Of a DNA stretch of 64,000 nt, positions 1-9,189 are shown in pieces. The DNA lies in the NCBI GenBank assembly GCA_963782525.1, contig CAWAKC010000007.1, positions 192,001 through 256,000 of the forward strand, written 5' to 3'. The notes under the pieces are model-generated. The model was given only the letters and a program-made list of their open reading frames with translations. It was not told the origin of the DNA and searched no databases. Numbering within the stretch: position 1 is the stretch's first letter; every line of letters begins with the position of its first letter. A program made the position numbers and the translations under genes. The DNA comes from Candidatus Bathyarchaeota archaeon. Its GTDB lineage: Archaea > Thermoproteota > Bathyarchaeia > Bathyarchaeales > Bathycorpusculaceae.

Positions 1-7
1 CGACAAA

Positions 8-922
8 CTAACCAAGATAGGCTAAATCCTTCGCGTAGGGCAAGCCTGCGCGGGCGCCCATAGCCAACACTTTTCGGGACCCAACAAAATTGCCCAGTTG
101 ACCGCATTCGTAGAGACTTTTTTCGTGGATTAAACCGTAGAGAAAGCCCGCGTTGAAAGCATCTCCCGCGCCGGTGGTGTCGAGTGCTTTAACTTTGAAG
201 GGTTCCACACTGAGATGTTCTTGACCATCCGTAACGTAGCAACCTTTGCTTCCGAGTTTCACCGCCACGATCTTGACGCCCATACCAATCATGAAATCGG
301 CGCCTCTACGAAAGTCTTCTTCGCCTGTTAACAGTTCAAGTTCAGCCGCATTAGGCATCAAAACGTGGGAGTTCTTAATTAGGGGTTCTATGACGCCGAA
401 ACCTTTTTGTGCATACACAGAGCCCGGATCGAAGCTGATTTCGACCCCTTCAGGCAAGGCGCTTAAGAGTTTTTTTTGTGCACGGAACGATTTTTCACCT
501 ACAAAAGAGGATAGGTGGACGAGTTTGGTTTGGGAAACGTATTCGTATTTGATTTCTCTGGGCTCGATTAAGTCGTTGACGCCTGAGTTAATGTAGAGTG
601 TTCTTGCGCCTGTTCTGTCCACGAAACCCATCACTGAGCCGCTTCTGCCCTTTGTTGTATCGATGATTCCGCGGGTGTCCACGCCTTCGGCTTTGAAGCA
701 GTCAAGCTGCAGTTTGCCTTCGCGGTCGCCAGCAACTTTTCCTATGAAACCAACTTTGCAGCCAAGCCTAGCTAGCCCTACAATCGTGTTTGCGGCTGAG
801 CCTCCGCAGGCTTCCTTGTAGTCTTCGATGAAGCTTTCTTTTTCAGCGGTTGCAAATTTGTCTACTTTGAAGAGCATGTCAACGTTGAGTGCTCCGAATC
901 CTATTACGTCAAATTTTGTCAT
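8..922 (-). CDS. PfkB-family carbohydrate/nucleoside kinase (EhaT-like)
   Basis: GGSAAN N-terminal PfkB signature and [13 protein letters not shown]-terminal signature; overlaps the upstream gene by 4 nt. Confidence 0.9.
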
Positions 923-1827
923 ACAAACAACTCTTTTAATGGGATTTTGTGTTCGCCCAGTTTGCCGCCGTAGTTACCAGCGGATATCCGCACGACGCCA
1001 TCTACGTCTAATACGGCTTTTATTCCTGCTTTGGTGGCTTCTTTAACAGCGTCTATGGAAATGCCGTCGAAAACGATTTCGGCGATGTAGTTGACGCCTT
1101 CTGGAACCTTCGATTCCTTGCCTAAGCGTGATTTAAGCGAGGGACAGTACAGGTGGTTGGTGGTAGGCCCTATTTTCGGATAATGGGTTTCGGGTTTGGA
1201 ACCAGCTGAACAGATATCAAAGGTAGTCACGACGCCATACACTTTGTGAATTGCCTTCAGGGCTTTGGCGCCCGCGTAATTAAGCGCCTCTTTTGATGTG
1301 CACATTATCCAAAAGTTGCCGCCCATAACACCCCGAGCGTAACCAAGATACCGTTCAATAACAAAGTCAGGAACCATAAGTGGAACAACGATGACTTCTC
1401 TACCAAAACGCTTTTCGACCCACTCATAGCCATCGCCGCAGTGACCCACACTCTCCATCATGTCTAACTTGCCCTCGGACCTTGGTAAAGCATCAAAAAC
1501 GGCGGTGAAGGGTTTAACGAGGATGTCTTGGCGGATGCGGTAAGAGAGTTCGGTTTCGAACTTTTTTAGTGATTCCGCGAAAGTTTTTTTGGGATTGATT
1601 TCGCCCCAAAACTGCAAGGTTGCGCCCATGCGTTTGTCGGGTGTTTCGTTTGGGTTTAGGTATTTTTCTACGCCACCTTCAGTTCTGCCAATGACAACCG
1701 ACGGAGTCGCTGTGGAGTCTTCAGCTGCCTTACGCATACTCTGTTCATCATCCGCAGTAATAATTACCCTGCAAAAAAGCCCCGTAAACGCTTCAGCGTA
1801 AGTGTCTTCGATTACTGCTTTACCCAT
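919..1827 (-). CDS. Formylmethanofuran:H4MPT formyltransferase-like protein (divergent Ftr paralog, EhaS-like)
   Basis: IEDTYAEAF start, [21 protein letters not shown] and [10 protein letters not shown] Ftr motifs; [12 protein letters not shown] replaces the canonical RIGQCVLT.PTT. Confidence 0.85.
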
Positions 1828-2910
1828 TTATCCAAGTCTCCCGATGGCTACTCCACGAACGCTCTTCCTAAACGCACTGCTCTCTTTTATGAGTGATTCC
1901 ATATTTTTGGCTGAAACTATTTGAATTTTGGGCAGGGCATCAGGGTACAGGGTTGAAAGCTGTTTGAGAAGGGCCTCGTCAACCGTAATTTTATTAAGAG
2001 ATTCATAATCCCATGAACCAAGAGCCTTCAGGGTTTTTGCTTTGCCAAACTTGCAGAATAAGTCAACTATCACTGCCGTGACTAGGTTGCTTTCTGACTG
2101 TACAGCCACCTCAGCGTTCTTCACTGCATAGCTGTTTCCGTTGAAAGACACAGTTAAGCCGCCGTAATCGCGGATAAGTTTGAAGGCTTCCACGTCAGTT
2201 ATGCTGTCGCCCACATACATGACATCCCCTAATCCCACTCCTAATCGTTTCGCTGCGTCACGAATAGATTCAGCTTTTTGTTCCCCACCAACCGTCACGA
2301 CATCGATGAGGAATTTTCCGACAAACATCTTAGGAATTAATCTCCAGAAAATCTCATCCAACCGTTGGATAATGGCTTGGTCGCGGATTGAAAAATCTTC
2401 GATTGTTTTTGCGTTCGGGGGAATATCGATTAGGTGCATATTTGCGATTTCTTGCGCTATTTCCCTCAACAGCTCTTTCTCTTTGGGGGTTATGGGGATT
2501 TTGTCGAGGGCTACTTTTGTGCAGTAAGTGTTCTTGTAGGGGAATTCGACTGCTTTGCAGAGTGCTTTGATGTAATGCTCGTAGCTAGTGCTAACGATAA
2601 AGGAATCAGCTATTTTTTGTATATGGTTTAGGGTGATTTTGCTGTTGGAGATTAGTATTAAGTTTTTTGAAGAGAAATCGTCCATCTGGCTATCAGTTAT
2701 TCCGTAAGCTTTGAAAAAGGGCAAAATCAACTTTAGCGTGCTTCCGGCGGAGTAACCAGGCTTCTTTATCGCATCAGCCAAAACGTCATCGTAGAGGCTG
2801 ATATTTGTGAAAAATTTGTCGCCATTTGGAATAAAATTTTCAGCTAACTCGAAAGCGTTATCGTTTTTGGAAATGGGCCCTTCGCAGTCGGAAACAAAGA
2901 TCCGTTTCAA
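1828..2910 (-). CDS. HAD-superfamily hydrolase, EhaR-like
   Basis: N-terminal DCEGPISKNDNA (HAD motif I variant), IVSTSY, YVGDSITD (motif IV), SFNGN. Confidence 0.75.
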   Translation of the reverse strand: MKRIFVSDCEGPISKNDNAFELAENFIPNGDKFFTNISLYDDVLADAIKKPGYSAGSTLKLILPFFKAYGITDSQMDDFSSKNLILISNSKITLNHIQKIADSFIVSTSYEHYIKALCKAVEFPYKNTYCTKVALDKIPITPKEKELLREIAQEIANMHLIDIPPNAKTIEDFSIRDQAIIQRLDEIFWRLIPKMFVGKFLIDVVTVGGEQKAESIRDAAKRLGVGLGDVMYVGDSITDVEAFKLIRDYGGLTVSFNGNSYAVKNAEVAVQSESNLVTAVIVDLFCKFGKAKTLKALGSWDYESLNKITVDEALLKQLSTLYPDALPKIQIVSAKNMESLIKESSAFRKSVRGVAIGRLG

Positions 2911-4328
2911 CGTTTGTGCCTCAACTTATCCATGTGAGTGATGCTTTTGGCTATGTGTTGTTTTGAGGCGACGTCGGTTCGGTTCCAGAGTGCACCGCCC
3001 GTGATAGTAATGGCGCCTTCTTGGCTGATTTGGCGTGCTTCCTCGATACTGCTACCGATGCCAAGGACGCCGATAGCGCGAGATTTAAGCGCGTAGTTTT
3101 TACCATCTCGCAGTTCCATAGAGCCAGGGTAGATTCGGATTTTATTTCCGTACTTTTTAGTTAATTCCTGAGCTTTTGTGAGGTCAACTGGCGTATTGAT
3201 GACGGTTTTATCAACTATGTTTGAGAATGTTTCTGCGTAACCGCCGTAGTCTGCCGGGACTTTATAGGTTAGAACTGTCGCAGACTTCTCCATCACAACG
3301 CCTCTGAGATTACCATCCGCCATTTTAAGGCAGACATCTACGAAGTCGTCTTTTATGATTGGGAGGAGGTTCATGATTTCAGGGTCACCCGGGCGGCTGT
3401 TAATTTCGAGGATTTTGATGCCCTTGCCTGTATGCATAAAAGCAAGGTACAATGGGACACCACGAAGCGCGGTGTCATCGCTGATTTTTGCTTTCCAACC
3501 TGTGAAAACTTTGTTGGCCAAAACCAGTTCCTGTTCACGTTCAGCAGCTGTTAAGAACGGCAGCCAATCAACAACGTCCTTGTAGGAACCCATGCCACCC
3601 GTGTTGGGTCCTTTGTCGTCGTCGAAGGCACGTTTGTAGTCACGGGTGTCGGGCAAGGGGATGAAGTGTTTGCCGTCGCAGAAGCCCATGCAGCTGGATT
3701 CTTCACCATCGATTTTTTCTTCGATAATAACTGAACCGTATTTGAAGTTGGACATAAAGTGCTCAAAAAGTTGCTCGCGGTTTACAAAGTGATCGCCCCA
3801 GACGCCAACGCCTTTGCCCAAGGCGGGTTTGTCGGGTTTAACAACGGCTTGGTTGTCCAATTCATCCAGCCATTGGTAAACATCTTTCCGTACATCTTTT
3901 CCTTTGTAATCGGCTGGGTGAAAAACTTTGAAGCGCGGGTTAGCTTCAGGCGCTATCTCTTCGAAAAGCACTCTTTGAGCAACTTTGCTTTCTTCTATAG
4001 CGTATTCTTTGGTGGGGCAAATAACGGGTATGCCAGTTTGTTTCTCGATTAGGTCGCGTATTCCTTCGATTATAGGTTTCTCGGAGCCGACCAGAACAAA
4101 ATCGAGTTTGTCCTTGTTTTCCTCTGCGAATTTGCTGATTTCTTGGATGTCAAGGTTCGGGATAACCTTGTGTTTGGTAGCGTGCTCTGCATTGAAGGGG
4201 TTGCATTGTTTGTCGGCTACGTAGAGTTCCACCTGGTATTTTTTGCTTCTTAGAAGAGCATCTGCCATGGCGACTTCTCGTGCGCCGTAAGAAATAACTA
4301 GGACACCTACTTTTTCCATCCAAGACAC
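2907..4328 (-). CDS. purD: Phosphoribosylamine--glycine ligase
   Basis: GARE N-terminus, GKGV, DYKRAFDDDKGPNTGGMGS, EINSRPGDPE. Confidence 0.93.
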   Translation of the reverse strand: MSWMEKVGVLVISYGAREVAMADALLRSKKYQVELYVADKQCNPFNAEHATKHKVIPNLDIQEISKFAEENKDKLDFVLVGSEKPIIEGIRDLIEKQTGIPVICPTKEYAIEESKVAQRVLFEEIAPEANPRFKVFHPADYKGKDVRKDVYQWLDELDNQAVVKPDKPALGKGVGVWGDHFVNREQLFEHFMSNFKYGSVIIEEKIDGEESSCMGFCDGKHFIPLPDTRDYKRAFDDDKGPNTGGMGSYKDVVDWLPFLTAAEREQELVLANKVFTGWKAKISDDTALRGVPLYLAFMHTGKGIKILEINSRPGDPEIMNLLPIIKDDFVDVCLKMADGNLRGVVMEKSATVLTYKVPADYGGYAETFSNIVDKTVINTPVDLTKAQELTKKYGNKIRIYPGSMELRDGKNYALKSRAIGVLGIGSSIEEARQISQEGAITITGGALWNRTDVASKQHIAKSITHMDKLRHKR

Positions 4329-4367
4329 CGTTAGTGAATAGACATTGCAGGGAACGCTTAATAGCAG

Positions 4368-5852
4368 TTACGCCTGAGCTTCTTCGGATTCGTAGATTCT
4401 GTTTTTCTCTTCGAAGCCTTCTTGGAAGCGTTTTTTCATTATGGTAGCCATTTTCTGCGCACACGGCGTTGGATACTTGCCTGTGACGCAGGCTAAGCAA
4501 AGCTCGTTTTCTGTACAACCTATCGCTCGAATGAGTCCCTCGAGGGATTGGTAGCATACGGCATCTGCACCAATGATTTTAGCGATTCCCGCTGGATCTT
4601 GTCTTGAACCGATGAGTTGCCCATATGTTGACATGTCGATGCCGTATAAGCAGGGACCAATTATACGTGGGAAAGTTACGAAGACATAGACTTTTTTGGC
4701 GCCTACTTTCCGCAGTTTCTCGATGATCACTTTGGTTGTATCTCCGCGGACGATACTGTCCTCGGTTATTATGACACGTTTCCCTGCAACTTTGCTGCCT
4801 AAAATGTTAATTTTCTTATCAATAGTCGAGAACCGTTCCGTATTCAGCAGAATAAAGGCTCGTTCGGTAACGTAGCGATGTCGCCTTGAAGCTCGTTCCC
4901 AACGTAAACCTGACTCTTCATGAACCCCCATCGCAGAGTCGTCGCCAGTCTCAGGAACCGACATGATTATGTCGCCGTCCTTGGCGATTTCTGGGAATTC
5001 CCTCACGATATTTCTGCCGAATTCCTCGCGCATTTCATAGACGTATTTGTCGCCGCCGAAAGTTGAGTCGGGCCTTGCAAAATAAGCGTACTCAAAAGCG
5101 CAGAAGGCTTCACGAGGGTTTTGGATAAGTTGGGTGCGTTTGAAGCCATCAGGTGAAACTGTTACGAGTTCGCCCGGTTTTAATTCAAAATCTTGCACAA
5201 AACTGTTCATGTCCAAGCTGACGGTTTCAGATGAAAAAGCAAACGTTTTCCCATTTGGGTCATGTCCAGCGCACAGGGGTTTTATGCCATGCGGGTCCTT
5301 GAATGCAAAGAATTCTCCGTCTCCCGTTATACCTGTTACTGAAAACGCTCCATCTAAGCTCTCCATTACGTTGCGAGCGGCAGCCTCCAAAGTTTTGCCC
5401 TGCTTAAGTCCCAGAAGGAATTTGTGACAGACAATGTCGGAGTCGCAGTTGTAGATGAAGTCCGAGAAGTTTTGGTTCATTTCTTTTTTTAGTGGCATCG
5501 TGTTGACGATATTGCCGTTAAATGAGAGGGCAACTGTTATTCCATCACTGGATGCAACGACTGGCTGAGTGCCGTCAATTATTGACACATCGTCACATTT
5601 GCCCGATGTTGTGTACCTTACGTTGCCTATGCCTATGGATCCGGGCAAGCGGCCAAACCATTCTTGGATAGCGTTGCTCTTGACTTTAGGGACTAGATCC
5701 AAGTTCTTGTAGGTGAAGAATTGTTTGTCGCTGTATGTTAGGAAACCATGTGATTGGTGTCCCCTATGGTTCTGTGCACGTAAACCCCAATAAACATACG
5801 GAAAAACTGGTTGATTATCATAATTTATTGCCCCAAAGATACCGCAGCCTAT
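4368..5852 (-). CDS. purF: Amidophosphoribosyltransferase (Fe-S type); true start is upstream of the ORF-track start, at an ATA codon
   Basis: Reading frame extends 150 nt upstream of 5702 to (M)GCGIFG...QNHRGHQSHG; VRYTTSG, FNGNI, EDSIVRGDT; cluster Cys in CAFE, PCLYG, CLAC. Confidence 0.93.
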   Translation of the reverse strand: MGCGIFGAINYDNQPVFPYVYWGLRAQNHRGHQSHGFLTYSDKQFFTYKNLDLVPKVKSNAIQEWFGRLPGSIGIGNVRYTTSGKCDDVSIIDGTQPVVASSDGITVALSFNGNIVNTMPLKKEMNQNFSDFIYNCDSDIVCHKFLLGLKQGKTLEAAARNVMESLDGAFSVTGITGDGEFFAFKDPHGIKPLCAGHDPNGKTFAFSSETVSLDMNSFVQDFELKPGELVTVSPDGFKRTQLIQNPREAFCAFEYAYFARPDSTFGGDKYVYEMREEFGRNIVREFPEIAKDGDIIMSVPETGDDSAMGVHEESGLRWERASRRHRYVTERAFILLNTERFSTIDKKINILGSKVAGKRVIITEDSIVRGDTTKVIIEKLRKVGAKKVYVFVTFPRIIGPCLYGIDMSTYGQLIGSRQDPAGIAKIIGADAVCYQSLEGLIRAIGCTENELCLACVTGKYPTPCAQKMATIMKKRFQEGFEEKNRIYESEEAQA

Positions 5853-6007
5853 TTTTCAGTCCCCTCAAGCAGTAAATGCTCATAGATTGAAAGAAGGGGT
5901 TTATACGCTTTTAGTACAAATTTACGTATAAACCATGGGGTTTTTGACATAATACAGATTAGCAGAAACGGGGGAGGAAAAAATAATTCTAAAAAGAAAA
6001 GGAAGGA

Positions 6008-6421
6008 TTATGGTTTTTGCGTGTACTCCAGCATGCCAAAAGCGTTGCCATCGGGGTCAAGCGCCAGTGCCCACCAGCCTATGCCCGGAATCTCCATCTT
6101 CTGCTGGATTATTTTGCCGCCTAACGCCTCCACCTTCTTGCTGTATTCCTCTACAGACTCCACTGAAATGTAGTTTATTGGCGTAGCCCTCTCCGGCATT
6201 GAAGCATCCTTTTTCTCGTACAGTCCACCATTGACGCCTGGTCGAATCGGCATCATGGTTTTTTCATCCACGGGAACCGTTCCGACAAGATAATAGACGG
6301 TTGGTCCAGGATACTTATTCATCGTCCATCCAAACAAATCCATATAAAATTTCTTTAACTTCTCGATGTCATTGGCTGGAATTTCAAAATGTACAATTGT
6401 ATGGTCCACAAAAATCACCAA
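6008..6421 (-). CDS. VOC/glyoxalase-family protein
   Basis: IVHFEIPA...FYMDLFGW, GINGG-like motif, DPDGNAFG; likely start is the GTG at about 6409. Confidence 0.85.
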   Translation of the reverse strand: MVIFVDHTIVHFEIPANDIEKLKKFYMDLFGWTMNKYPGPTVYYLVGTVPVDEKTMMPIRPGVNGGLYEKKDASMPERATPINYISVESVEEYSKKVEALGGKIIQQKMEIPGIGWWALALDPDGNAFGMLEYTQKP

Positions 6422-6507
6422 TTTCTAGAAATTGGGCGGATTATAAAAGAATTTCTTAAAAGCTAAATTGAATAAAAAATAAAAATAAAATGAGAAGGGG
6501 GATGGCT

Positions 6508-7941
6508 TTATGGTTGCCATTTTTCAATAAGGTACTTGGGTATCTCTGAGCTGTCGCGTGGTCCAACTTGGACTTTCCAGCCGCTGAGTTCTTCGATTTC
6601 GCCGCTGATGCGTGAGGCTTTGCCAGGGATGATGATTTTGCGGTGTTTGACTTTCTGTTCTATGCCGCTGGCTTTGATTGCTTCTGCGACTCTTTCGGCT
6701 GTGAGTTTGCGTCCTGCGACTCCGCTGTCGATTGCTGAGCCCTCTGTTTCGACGACGATTAAGTAGGCGTTGAGTTTGTTTGCTTCGATGTCTGAGGCGA
6801 CTGTGTAGTAGGTAAGGGCGAAGTTTGATGTGAACATGACTGGTGAGTTCTCGTCTGGGGTGCCGTAGACTTTGAGGCCTGGTGCGACTGCGACTGGTTT
6901 GCGTGGATCAGTGTAGATGTTCTGGCGTAGTACGGTTGTTGGTAGGAGTGCCCATCCGTCGTTGCCGTGCATGATTAATACGTCTGCGTACCGGACTACG
7001 AGCATGGATGCAATGTATGCTTCGCGCCATTTTACGAGGTCGTCTGCTGTTTCGCCTTTATCTACCCAAGCGACCATGGGGACGCCGAGTAGAGGTAAGC
7101 CTGCGAGTTCTTCGCCGCCTTTGGTTGCTGCTCTTCGGAGCATGGTAAAGTTGTCGATTGTGTCTGGTAAGCCTTCGTTTATGAATGTGCCAGGGTCTAG
7201 GACGATGTCTTTTACGCCGTAAGCCATCAGGGTTTTTGCGAGTGAGACGAGGGTTGTTAGGTCGTTTGGTGCAGATGCGACTATTGGGCAATCGTACATT
7301 AAAGCGAGTTCTGCCATGTCTTTCCAGTTGGTTTGGTTTGCTGCGTAGAGGAGTGGTCTTGCTTTTGGTGCTGCCATTAAGCCTGCTTCAGCGATTGCTG
7401 GGCTCATGGTGCAGAGAATCATAGGCAACTTTGTGGTATCTGAAACTTTTTTGACTGTTGCCTTGAATTTGTCTGCATCACCTGAAGTGCAACGAACTGC
7501 TATCATGTCGAGTTTTAGGGTGTTTCCGATGTATTCGAAAGTAAAGTTATCTGTTTTTTGGACGCGTGAGACAATTTCGGCATCGCTCATTTCGTCAGTT
7601 ACGTCGATTGCGATGGCTGTTGGGTTTTTATATGTGAATTCGTGGCGGTACATGACTAGTTTGCCGCCGATTTTTTTGGCTTTGTCGCCGACGCCTACGA
7701 TGACTTCTTTGACTGCTGGTTTTAGGAGTTCTTTGAGTACAGCGTATGCTTTGGCGTTTTCGGGTTTGAGGAGTGGTTTGCAACTGTCGAGTTCTACTTC
7801 GCGGTTGACAATTTTTGTGGCGAATGCCATGCAGTTGTTGACGCCGCATTCTTTGCAGTTAATTTTTGGCAAGCTCTTGTAAATGGTTATGGGGCTTAGT
7901 TCTTTTAATCCGCCTTTTTTCTTTTCTGCCATATTAGTCAT
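6508..7941 (-). CDS. cdhE: ACDS complex gamma subunit (corrinoid Fe-S protein large subunit)
   Basis: LPKINCKECGVNNCMAFA 4Fe-4S motif, IYTDPRKP, NFALTYYTV, VGPRDSS. Confidence 0.95.
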   Translation of the reverse strand: MTNMAEKKKGGLKELSPITIYKSLPKINCKECGVNNCMAFATKIVNREVELDSCKPLLKPENAKAYAVLKELLKPAVKEVIVGVGDKAKKIGGKLVMYRHEFTYKNPTAIAIDVTDEMSDAEIVSRVQKTDNFTFEYIGNTLKLDMIAVRCTSGDADKFKATVKKVSDTTKLPMILCTMSPAIAEAGLMAAPKARPLLYAANQTNWKDMAELALMYDCPIVASAPNDLTTLVSLAKTLMAYGVKDIVLDPGTFINEGLPDTIDNFTMLRRAATKGGEELAGLPLLGVPMVAWVDKGETADDLVKWREAYIASMLVVRYADVLIMHGNDGWALLPTTVLRQNIYTDPRKPVAVAPGLKVYGTPDENSPVMFTSNFALTYYTVASDIEANKLNAYLIVVETEGSAIDSGVAGRKLTAERVAEAIKASGIEQKVKHRKIIIPGKASRISGEIEELSGWKVQVGPRDSSEIPKYLIEKWQP

Positions 7942-7947
7942 GTCTCC

Positions 7948-9189
7948 TTAAGCTTTCACTGTGACCCAGTTTGCGTATTTTGATGGGTCTGCTTTTTTGC
8001 CGCTTGTTAGGTAGTTTGTGACGTCTTTTAGTGTTTTTACTGCTGCTGGATGCATCATCATGAATAGGTCTACGCCTGCAAGCAACAGTGTTATGGCTGT
8101 TGTTACTTCCCAGAGTGGACCTCTGAGTTCGCGTGGTTCCCATTGAGCATCCATCTTTAGCCAGGCTTCTCTTGCTGCCCAAGCGTTGGTTGTGCCTGAG
8201 GACATTGGGTGTGCGAGTTCAATGTCGCCCATTAAGCCGCCGATTCTTGCGCGTTCCATGTTTGTGAATGCGTAATCTAAGCCGTAGCCTAAGGCTGCTG
8301 TGGTTAGGTCCATAACGATGTCTTCTCTTGCGACGTAGTCATAGAGGCGTCTGTTTAATTCGCGTGCCAAGTTGAGGTCCATTGGTGTGAATGAGAGGAT
8401 TGCGTGGCCTGCTTTTTTGATGAATTTTGCGCATTTTTCGACATCCATGTCGCGTGTGACTGAGCTAATTAGGAAACGTTCGCCTGGGAATTGTGCGCAT
8501 ACTTCTTCGAAGACCGCTGTGTCTTTAACTGGGTCGCCGCATCCGCCTATAACGAGTGGAACGTCAACTGCTTGCAGGACTTTCTCTATGGTTTTGCATG
8601 CATCTTTTGGTGTTGCATCTTTGAGTAGTGGATCTACACTGATTAGGTGCATTGTAACCATGTCTGCGCCGAATTTGTCAACAGCAAGTTTTGCCCAAGC
8701 TGCGGGGTCGCCGACGACGTCTTTAACGTGCATCTTTACGGCCTTTGACAGTGGAACTTCCATGTCGAAAACGTCTAAGGTTACAATTGGTTTGTGTGTT
8801 GTTGGTGCTTCAAAATTGTAGTAAGCGGGAGATACTTCTCCGCCTATGAGGAATGATTTGCCGCGTGTTCCGCCTTCGCTTTTTGTTGCCCCTAGTTTTA
8901 CTGTGGTGATTTTGTTCGGGTATTTTTCGATTGGTGGTAAAAAGGGTACTTGCAGCATGCTTAGTGGTTTGCCACCTGCTATTGCCGCGGTTGGTGGAAG
9001 CTTAAGTTTAGGCATTATTTGGCCTGCTGCGCCTGATTCGAAGATGATTTCGAGTTCTTTAGCATCAATTTGGAAGTCTTCCAGCTCAATGGTCTGGAAT
9101 TTTGCAAGAGCTGCTAGTAGGTCTTCGCTTAGCTGTAGTCCTTCAGCGTCTTTCTTTTTGTCGTTGTCGTTTTGGGGCGTTGAAATCAC
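7948..9189 (-). CDS. cdhD: ACDS complex delta subunit
   Basis: GATKSEGGTR, DLTTAALGYGLDY, GTTNAWAAREAW, MMMHP. Confidence 0.95.
   Translation of the reverse strand: MISTPQNDNDKKKDAEGLQLSEDLLAALAKFQTIELEDFQIDAKELEIIFESGAAGQIMPKLKLPPTAAIAGGKPLSMLQVPFLPPIEKYPNKITTVKLGATKSEGGTRGKSFLIGGEVSPAYYNFEAPTTHKPIVTLDVFDMEVPLSKAVKMHVKDVVGDPAAWAKLAVDKFGADMVTMHLISVDPLLKDATPKDACKTIEKVLQAVDVPLVIGGCGDPVKDTAVFEEVCAQFPGERFLISSVTRDMDVEKCAKFIKKAGHAILSFTPMDLNLARELNRRLYDYVAREDIVMDLTTAALGYGLDYAFTNMERARIGGLMGDIELAHPMSSGTTNAWAAREAWLKMDAQWEPRELRGPLWEVTTAITLLLAGVDLFMMMHPAAVKTLKDVTNYLTSGKKADPSKYANWVTVKA

Follow-up and report, generated by a model that had tools for sequence, protein, structure and literature searches.

A HAD-Ftr2-PfkB gene trio in a bathyarchaeal purine cluster is a candidate system for the formylation of glycinamide ribonucleotide

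The third step of purine synthesis, in which glycinamide ribonucleotide (GAR) is converted to formylglycinamide ribonucleotide (FGAR), is carried out in the described systems by PurN or PurT, with 10-formyl-tetrahydrofolate or free formate as the formyl donor. Three protein families that are not related to these enzymes occur together at the end of the eha hydrogenase operon of Methanothermobacter as EhaR, EhaS and EhaT. EhaS resembles Ftr, the formylmethanofuran:tetrahydromethanopterin (H4MPT) formyltransferase, EhaT is ribokinase-like, and both are co-transcribed with ehaA-R, according to the part of Kaster 2011 that concerns this operon. The same families, a haloacid dehalogenase (HAD) superfamily hydrolase, an Ftr paralog (Ftr2) and a PfkB-family kinase, are encoded side by side in a stretch of 64,000 nucleotides (nt) of a Candidatus Bathyarchaeota genome (assembly GCA_963782525.1, contig CAWAKC010000007.1, positions 192,001 to 256,000; the whole of this stretch is referred to as the window). 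Judged from comparative sequence data, the HAD-Ftr2-PfkB trio probably performs or bypasses step 3 in archaea that have neither PurN nor PurT, as a third, non-homologous GAR-formylating system. The observations behind this proposal are a conserved arrangement of the genes, an own genome in which PurN and PurT are missing, a distribution across genomes complementary to that of PurN and PurT, the co-occurrence of the trio genes, and intact residues of catalytic type.

The gap that the trio might fill has been described twice. The passage of Brown 2011 on this step reports that its enzyme was not found in seven archaeal species with otherwise intact pathways, and lists as lacking purN and purT two Archaeoglobi, Methanopyrus kandleri and four species labelled Methanomicrobiales; these four are taken to be Methanothermobacter, Methanosphaera and two Methanobrevibacter, which are named next in that passage. 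The same passage names A. fulgidus as a user of methanopterin-type coenzymes and states that formyl-H4MPT is not believed to be a formyl donor. In the relevant section of Chadwick 2022, PurN and PurT are lacking in ANME-1 (ANME, anaerobic methanotrophic archaea), Archaeoglobales and Methanobacteriales, and the step-3 enzyme is described as still unidentified. Another section of that paper places Ftr2 in Archaeoglobales, M. kandleri, M. marburgensis, ANME-1 and ANME-2a/b; the two distributions are given separately in these sections and are not joined. Full-text literature searches, which left most subscription journals aside, returned no paper connecting GAR formylation with EhaS or an Ftr paralog, and the term 'glycinamide riboside' did not occur in the texts covered.

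At the bathyarchaeal locus, the plus-strand genes purM-purL-purQ are followed by the convergent genes PfkB-Ftr2-HAD-purD-purF (Table 1), and purQ runs into the 3' end of PfkB. Because purF and purD lie on one side and the convergent purM-purL-purQ on the other, purine steps 1, 2, 4 and 5 flank the trio, and when steps 1 to 5 are considered, step 3 is the sole step without a gene in the cluster. The gap between purF and purD is 39 nt, HAD overlaps purD and PfkB overlaps Ftr2 by 4 nt each, and Ftr2 and HAD abut with zero gap. A previous sequence-only reading of the window had described five co-oriented genes with exactly these junctions, and the coordinates bear it out; the genes just to the left of the window, to which it had also pointed, prove to be purQ, preceded by purL and purM. 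That reading had further placed a cdh operon about 650 nt away. The cdh gamma gene does end 655 nt upstream of purF, with a glyoxalase-family gene, unmentioned in the reading, in between. The trio, arranged HAD-Ftr2-PfkB, differs from EhaR/S/T in its position inside a purine cluster and in having no hydrogenase neighbor; its annotated neighbors are pur and cdh genes rather than the end of an energy-converting hydrogenase operon. Contigs from RNA libraries that are 90-99% like the locus are present in four wetland runs, and the PfkB/Ftr2, Ftr2/HAD and HAD/purD junctions are each bridged by single contigs of this kind. They are a weak hint of expression, since they come from relatives, may include DNA carry-over, and a contig is not a transcript.

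A scan of species-representative genomes yielded 80 loci, 67 with Ftr2 and 13 with canonical Ftr, and the Ftr2 loci comprise 42 of Bathyarchaeia type and 25 others. HAD and PfkB stand on either side of Ftr2 in 39 of the 42 Bathyarchaeia-type loci; purD is present as well in 35, all five genes in 30 and a convergent purL in 28. Identity of Ftr2 to the window protein goes down to 58% across these loci, and contig ends truncate several of the exceptions. The 25 other loci belong to Methanophagales, Archaeoglobaceae, Alkanophaga, Hadarchaeota, Hydrothermarchaeota, Promethearchaeota and others. One of them, from the Asgard archaeon Candidatus Borrarchaeum yapensis (L083, 43% identity), carries purF-purD-HAD-Ftr2-PfkB-purL-purQ-purM on one strand, and if the trio stands for step 3, this gene order is the pathway order. 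In 12 of 16 regions examined for HAD and PfkB, the two genes adjoin in this order and Ftr2 lies elsewhere; the neighbors of such pairs are housekeeping genes such as those for Nre and S-adenosylmethionine (SAM) synthetase.

The bathyarchaeal genome itself, whose assembly is 95.8% complete and whose best Ftr2 homologs are labelled Candidatus Bathyarchaeia, lacks both known step-3 enzymes as far as family profiles can reveal them. PurN (TIGR00639) has no match at E 0.001, and none of the five operon proteins matches it; the best PurT match (TIGR01142) reaches only 47.1 bits, within a 1,091-amino acid (aa) open frame, and is too weak to count as PurT. A search of the genome for purN and purT, suggested by the sequence-only reading, therefore found neither. 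The AICARFT domain of PurH is absent as well, and two purP genes lie in tandem (G000:C10:24961-26600; PF06973 at 227.6 and 254.9 bits). A second purP as the missing GAR enzyme was rejected as a general solution, since Methanobacteriales have a single PurP and yet are without purN and purT, as stated in the passage of Brown 2011 on that order. The genome holds two Ftr genes, the window copy and a canonical one on contig C1, so that the window gene is not its only Ftr; a single, canonical Ftr would have spoken against the sequence-only reading.

The distribution of Ftr2 was compared with those of PurN and PurT in 161 Halobacteriota genomes at least 85% complete, among which Ftr2 scores 380-456 bits. 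The 68 genomes with Ftr2 divide into 64 without PurN and PurT and four with PurN, and none has PurT. Among the 93 without Ftr2, PurN (E at most 1e-20) or a PurT-like gene of full length is present in 88, and the PurT-like genes comprise ten at 437-459 bits (cut-off 502) and two above the cut-off. Five genomes have none of the three, and four of these carry HAD and the PfkB ortholog. The other trio genes keep company with Ftr2: in tables read by eye, the A3 profile detects HAD in 63 of the 68 Ftr2 genomes versus 8 of the 93 others, and the PfkB ortholog is present in 67 of 68 versus 10 of 93. Assignment of the latter is aided by the bimodal scores of the A4 profile, with orthologs at 233 bits or more and paralogs at 205 or less. 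The ten Halobacteriota genomes that have a PurT-like gene and no PurN are also without Ftr2, HAD and the PfkB ortholog.

In the second sample, 151 Bathyarchaeia genomes, 57 of the 59 with Ftr2 have no PurN- or PurT-like match, and none of the 59 has one above the family cut-offs (150.1 bits for PurN); the two exceptions are a weak PurN-like (100.7 bits) and a weak PurT-like match (175 bits). Such matches are found in 69 of the 92 genomes without Ftr2, namely PurN at about 150 bits or more in 22, a weaker PurN-like protein of ~275 aa in 37 and a PurT-like protein in 10. For the 23 that have none, 15 are listed as without purD, G346 is in neither list (presumably no match) and seven have purD. 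By tool labels, 13 Bathyarchaeia families have Ftr2 and 15 have PurN- or PurT-like genes, with three in both sets; in one of these labels, f11, two Ftr2 genomes are without the PurT-like gene carried by six non-Ftr2 genomes. In the phylum of a Methanothermococcus genome (Methanococci-type, n=36), Ftr2 is found in none and PurT over the cut-off in 33. Finally, 20 more Ftr2 genomes of mixed lineage, Borrarchaeum, Alkanophaga and Pyrohabitans among them, were examined for PurN alone, and PurN exceeds the cut-off in one. PurN or PurT in most trio-bearing genomes, which the sequence-only reading had named as fatal to its idea, is thus seen in neither large sample. As a separate observation, many non-Ftr2 genomes of families f18 and f15 have a ~275-aa protein that matches PurN positions 1 to ~156 at 83-106 bits and could represent a divergent formyltransferase that uses a different cofactor.

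Ftr2 contains both Ftr lobes at full length (PF01913, 148.3 bits; PF02741, 183.6 bits) and aligns with the structurally known Ftr (PDB 1FTR, 1M5H, 1M5S and 2FHJ) and FhcD over its whole length, at 183 bits to 1M5H. It reaches NF002554 (338.6 bits; cut-off 297) and falls below the cut-off of the equivalog model TIGR03119 (237.8 bits against 292.6), which places it outside canonical Ftr (Ftr1); in the genome scan with PF01913 the canonical copy scores 188.9 bits versus 150.4 for the window copy. The sequence-only reading had called the protein a divergent Ftr from the motif [12 protein letters not shown], which occupies Ftr2 residues 97-108, and this assignment is upheld by the trees. A tree of 55 representatives puts the window protein in an 11-member group beside a 37-member canonical group, and in a second tree, which includes named loci, a branch with 100% support sets canonical Ftr apart from the window protein. 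A profile (A1) built from the 11 Ftr2 representatives separates Ftr2 (at least 359 bits) from canonical Ftr (at most 298), and this gap was used to classify genomes. Twelve positions are specific to Ftr2, and ten of them have a fixed different residue in canonical Ftr: Y10 (F in canonical Ftr), L31 (A), E93 (Q), R99 (G), V104 (T), C130 (F), G186 (A), A208 (S), E213 (G) and P221 (A). Ftr2 differs from Ftr and FhcD further in a 9-residue insert near residues 76-84, and in that its genome holds canonical Ftr too. The only fusion partners of long Ftr homologs are FwdA/FwdC-type domains, and such fusions were set aside as uninformative for the function of Ftr2.

About 60 positions, including the oxyanion-stabilizing Glu, are common to Ftr2 and canonical Ftr. 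Ftr2 E250 aligns with the Glu of the YEIV motif of 1M5H and shows at least 90% conservation across 97 Ftr2 and 47 Ftr1 sequences; the oxyanion-stabilizing residue is Glu252 in FhcD, as given in the part of Hemmann 2019 on that subunit. With FhcD-like outgroups, canonical Ftr nests in an Ftr2 grade, although the outgroup branches are long and the root is not trusted. These shared residues, the co-transcription of the Methanothermobacter genes with ehaA-R, and the nesting, by which the ancestral activity may be the ordinary one if an unreliable rooting is accepted, all favor the explanation that Ftr2 is a second formylmethanofuran:H4MPT formyltransferase isoenzyme and that the trio consists of helpers or accessory subunits of Eha hydrogenase or of one-carbon energy metabolism. 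This is very improbable in view of the gene neighborhoods and the distribution. There is no hydrogenase gene beside the trio in the annotated part of the window (1-9189) and the 14 kb to its left, in agreement with the sequence-only reading, and the 25 commonest families of the 150 neighboring open reading frames (ORFs) of the lineages outside Bathyarchaeia include none of hydrogenases. Ftr2 is also missing from all 36 Methanococci-type genomes, a group that we take to possess Eha. Moreover, an isoenzyme or Eha accessory role leaves unexplained both the complementarity with PurN and PurT and the position in the pur cluster, and Ftr1 is the more highly transcribed copy in ANME, according to the section of Chadwick 2022 that compares the two.

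The Ftr2 proteins of genomes G091 and G068 branch within the Bathyarchaeia clade with 99% support. In G091, short HAD-like and PfkB-like fragments flank Ftr2 (L165:9617-11064) and full-length HAD and PfkB lie elsewhere in the genome; in G032 a short HAD-like fragment flanks Ftr2 (L169:10013-11149). The nesting and the fragments suggest transfer of a Bathyarchaeia-type cluster followed by decay.

The HAD protein is the ortholog of AF1437 of Archaeoglobus fulgidus (PDB 1Y8A, 'hypothetical protein'), which its profile A3 matches at E 1.2e-53. The two share the first motif D-x-E-G-P and differ in length, AF1437 having 332 aa versus 360 aa for the window protein. The motifs are D8-x-E10-G-P, S107-T-S, K212 and G234-D-S-I-T-D; motifs II-IV are present, and motif I, D8-C-E10, has Glu in place of the second Asp, an exchange that is invariant in 9 sequences and also found in 1Y8A. 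A similar D-x-E occurs in enolase-phosphatase E1. The name 'energy-converting hydrogenase A subunit R' is given by JGI to longer HAD homologs (36-40% identity), and a look-alike Atlas cluster bears it too. The correspondence of the trio to EhaR/S/T therefore holds at the level of families, through these names for EhaR and through the cited part of Kaster 2011 for EhaS and EhaT; orthology is based on names and papers, not on a tree.

The PfkB protein scores best in NCBIfam against ribokinase (161.8 bits, cut-off 299.65) and is below every equivalog cut-off. It keeps the ribokinase-type sites D15, GG40-41, N..E194 and DTTGAGDAF248-256, of which GG40-41, E194 and DTTGAGDAF with its catalytic D254 are invariant in 9 sequences, as befits a kinase. 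Its nearest solved relatives are the fructokinase 3HJ6 and ribokinases, kin that are consistent with phosphorylation of a ribofuranosyl 5'-OH. A further PfkB-family relative, 1TYY ('putative sugar kinase' in the PDB table), is matched at E 1.1e-12; we take it to be the aminoimidazole riboside kinase of Salmonella. That enzyme offers a precedent for the phosphorylation of a riboside of a purine-pathway intermediate and is only a distant relative of the window kinase.

EhaR-type HAD domains also occur behind an ATP-grasp domain of ~530 aa, at L185:9839-12730 (plus strand) and among proteins P0272-P0276 and P0290; the HAD fusions are P0272, P0273 and the L185 ORF. The best NCBIfam matches of the ATP-grasp of the HAD fusions are two PurT models (33 and 23 bits), with PF02222 at 26 bits, and relatives of this ATP-grasp are fused to a ThsB-like Toll/interleukin-1 receptor (TIR) domain (P0276). 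The neighbors at L185 are a restriction-modification methylase, a GajB-like helicase and a SIR2/ThsA-like gene. As a link between HAD and GAR formylation these fusions were set aside, in view of the phage-defense-like context and the weak PurT similarity; the L185 fusion may be an undescribed defense protein acting on a purine-pathway ribonucleotide.

Both PurF and PurD of the operon score below their family cut-offs. PurF scores 308.9 bits with TIGR01134, under the cut-off of 350, over positions 1-432 of 432; it is single-copy in the genome (next best match 116 bits) and has the N-terminal G-C-G-I-F-G with the nucleophile Cys and the PRTase motif DSIVRGDT. Only AAA-ATA-GGC separates an in-frame TGA from the codon of the catalytic Cys (window 5844-5858, minus strand), and the frame directly after the TGA reads K-I-G-C-G-I-F-G. 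Because no ATG, GTG or TTG precedes the catalytic Cys, purF must start at the ATA (5850-5852), 8 nt downstream of a GAGGGG. The sequence ATA-GGC-TGC is kept at the purF start of the related loci L017-L019, L026, L027 and L035, and L021 and L031 have ATG at this position. Gene callers restricted to ATG, GTG and TTG would shorten the protein by 50 residues, to a 444-aa ORF. PurD scores 236.7 bits with TIGR00877 (cut-off 288) over positions 3-423 of 425 and is the only full-length match in the genome, the other being a weak one of 27.4 bits in a 1,091-aa frame. It retains the GARS N, A and C domains and the motif RPGDPEIM with the conserved GDPE aspartate given in Brown 2011.

The scores under the NCBIfam cut-offs of the cluster's purF and purD bear on another explanation, in which Ftr2 serves purine synthesis by different chemistry, formylating glycine or another precursor for a divergent PurD, or releasing formate from bound one-carbon units for a formate-dependent enzyme. 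Also in its favor, PurD scores in Bathyarchaeia are bimodal, a type of 222-281 bits going with Ftr2 and a type of at least 303 bits with PurN or PurT. The bimodality holds inside one family, f11 (for example G211 and G233 versus G205 and G217), and one genome, G273, has both types. However, the low-scoring type adjoins a weak PurN-like gene in G202, G210 and G232 and thus looks like a lineage trait, PurD retains its GDPE motif and all three domains, and PurT-bearing organisms need formate for PurP too and yet are without the trio. A different chemistry within purine synthesis is accordingly considered quite unlikely.

Several findings weigh against the assignment of the trio to step 3. Linkage to pur genes, the conservation of which the sequence-only reading had put forward as a test, holds in Bathyarchaeia and on one Asgard contig, and pur neighbors of Ftr2 are absent from 24 of the 25 non-Bathyarchaeia loci (all but L083). 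In 20 further Halobacteriota regions Ftr2 is mostly alone, one region having HAD-PfkB-Ftr2, and a pur gene is nearby only in L181, where purM adjoins Ftr2, and L180, where purF is ~4 kb away; among the 150 ORFs neighboring Ftr2 outside Bathyarchaeia, no Pfam family occurs more than four times. PurN is present as well in four of the 68 Ftr2-bearing Halobacteriota, and the Promethearchaeota G351-G355 all have Ftr2, canonical Ftr and HAD, with canonical PurN in three of the five. Seven Bathyarchaeia genomes have purD and none of Ftr2, PurN and PurT. In G022, G044, G053 and G061, genomes that bear PurN and no Ftr2, HAD-PfkB pairs are present; the pair can thus have a role where PurN is present, a poor fit for a pair that serves Ftr2 only. 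In the HAD protein, the Glu rather than Asp two residues after the nucleophile makes plain phosphatase activity less than certain. The sampled genomes are kin and no species tree was used, so the counts overstate independent gains and losses; Ftr2 also tracks folate-free physiology, which the contrast with PurT separates only partly; and for Methanobacteriales and Methanopyrus the argument rests on papers, not genomes. Coexistence of analogous enzymes, on the other hand, is not unusual, and E. coli has both PurN and PurT.

The absence of pur linkage from most lineages, the HAD-PfkB pairs standing alone beside housekeeping genes or in PurN-bearing genomes without Ftr2, and the trio genes accompanied by PurN in three of five Promethearchaeota would suit a trio that acts on some other ribosyl or phosphorylated compound, in the making or salvage of H4MPT or methanofuran or in a nucleoside or pentose side path. 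Its distribution would then merely co-vary with a lifestyle free of folate and PurT, and shared use of phosphoribosyl pyrophosphate or co-regulation would account for the pur linkage of Bathyarchaeia. It also fits that the nearest solved relative of the HAD after 1Y8A is the methionine-salvage phosphatase 2FEA. This explanation is unlikely nonetheless. The ten PurT-bearing Halobacteriota without PurN have canonical Ftr and lack the whole trio, and this, like the absence of Ftr2 from the Methanococci-type genomes, is hard to reconcile with a cofactor pathway. In L083 the trio stands between purD and purL in pathway order, and the 4-nt overlaps of the Bathyarchaeia cluster look like translational coupling with purD. 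Overall, the tests named in advance that could be run came out in favor of the purine module proposed by the sequence-only reading, and the limited pur linkage, the PurN of Promethearchaeota and the Ftr2-free pairs in four PurN genomes count against it.

For a step-3 role of the trio, the substrate, the donor and the tasks of HAD and PfkB are those that we infer from the families and their order. Ftr2 would be the formyl-transferring enzyme, with formyl-methanofuran or N5-formyl-H4MPT as the donor and the amino group of glycinamide as the acceptor. In a riboside route, the one proposed by the sequence-only reading, HAD would strip the 5'-phosphate of GAR, Ftr2 would formylate glycinamide riboside, and PfkB would re-phosphorylate the product with ATP to give FGAR. 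This order of events is suggested because the genes stand as HAD-Ftr2-PfkB between purD and purL. Such a route would consume one ATP, the same as PurT, and riboflavin synthesis offers a parallel, since there too a phosphate is removed from an intermediate and the end product is phosphorylated again. Taken on its own, the riboside route is tentatively the one that we favor. It is likewise possible, at a similarly low level of confidence, that Ftr2 formylates GAR directly and that HAD and PfkB handle riboside side-products or another ribosyl compound. The NH2-CH2-C(=O)- head of GAR resembles the aminomethylfuran head of methanofuran and could occupy that pocket, with formyl-H4MPT as the donor; alternatively, GAR could replace H4MPT, with formyl-methanofuran as the donor. 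As ~40% of methylofuran was formylated at 0.45 M formate in an experiment described in Hemmann 2019, a formamide of a primary amine would be close to isoenergetic with free formate. Formyl transfer to GAR from formyl-methanofuran would accordingly lie close to equilibrium, and PurL could draw it forward.

In net terms the trio would convert GAR to FGAR, as PurN and PurT do, and a mutually exclusive distribution is typical of analogous enzymes. The trio differs from PurN and PurT in having no sequence relationship to them, in comprising three proteins instead of one, and in its donor, which would be an archaeal one-carbon carrier. In its most specific form the proposal is a third class of GAR transformylase, in which an Ftr paralog moves the purine C8 formyl from the methanogenic or Wood-Ljungdahl pool onto the dephosphorylated riboside, with an EhaR-type phosphatase before it and an EhaT-type kinase after it; in this full detail it is a tentative candidate. 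Eha reportedly has an anaplerotic role, and the tie of the trio to Eha would be understandable if formyl-methanofuran drawn for purines had to be refilled by Eha-driven CO2 reduction.

The features of the locus are collected in Table 1. Just upstream of purM lies a gene for a 278-aa protein with a CAP12/Pycsar-type TIR effector domain (G000:C7:186479-187315, also L013:8479-9315; minus strand).

Table 1 Features of the purine cluster and its surroundings. Plain numbers are window positions; entries with the prefix G000:C7 are genome contig positions.
Feature	Position	Strand	Size and evidence
PfkB/ribokinase-family kinase (EhaT-like), last gene of the operon	8..922	minus	304 aa; PF00294 177 bits
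Ftr2 (Ftr paralog, EhaS-like)	919..1827	minus	302 aa; PF01913 + PF02741
HAD-superfamily hydrolase (EhaR-like), ortholog of AF1437 (PDB 1Y8A)	1828..2910	minus	360 aa; weak Pfam HAD matches
purD (GAR synthetase), divergent type	2907..4328	minus	473 aa; GARS_N, GARS_A, GARS_C domains
purF (amidophosphoribosyltransferase), ATA start	4368..5852	minus	494 aa; TIGR01134
A+T-rich 155-nt spacer upstream of purF, likely promoter region	5853..6007	minus	read from sequence
3' end of purQ	1..25	plus	ORF
purM-purL-purQ, converging on PfkB	G000:C7:187416-192025	plus	GATase_5, AIRS/AIRS_C, FGAR-AT linker
Glyoxalase/VOC-family gene, between cdh operon and purF	6008-6421	minus	context
cdh gamma	6508-7941	minus	context
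cdh delta	7948-9189	minus	context

If the trio does take the place of PurN and PurT, the gap in archaeal purine synthesis would be closed for Archaeoglobi, Methanobacteriales, Methanopyrus and ANME-1. EhaR, EhaS and EhaT would gain a function, one that would also explain their place on the operon of the hydrogenase that would refill formyl-methanofuran, and one-carbon units bound to H4MPT and methanofuran would feed purines directly. Thousands of genes now called 'Ftr', 'HAD hydrolase' or 'sugar kinase' would be re-annotated, and metabolic models of Bathyarchaeia, ANME-1, Archaeoglobi and Asgard archaea, which now contain a gap or assume purine auxotrophy, would be corrected. With this locus, a long-standing gap is turned into a concrete three-gene candidate that can be assayed as purified proteins or in tractable methanogens.

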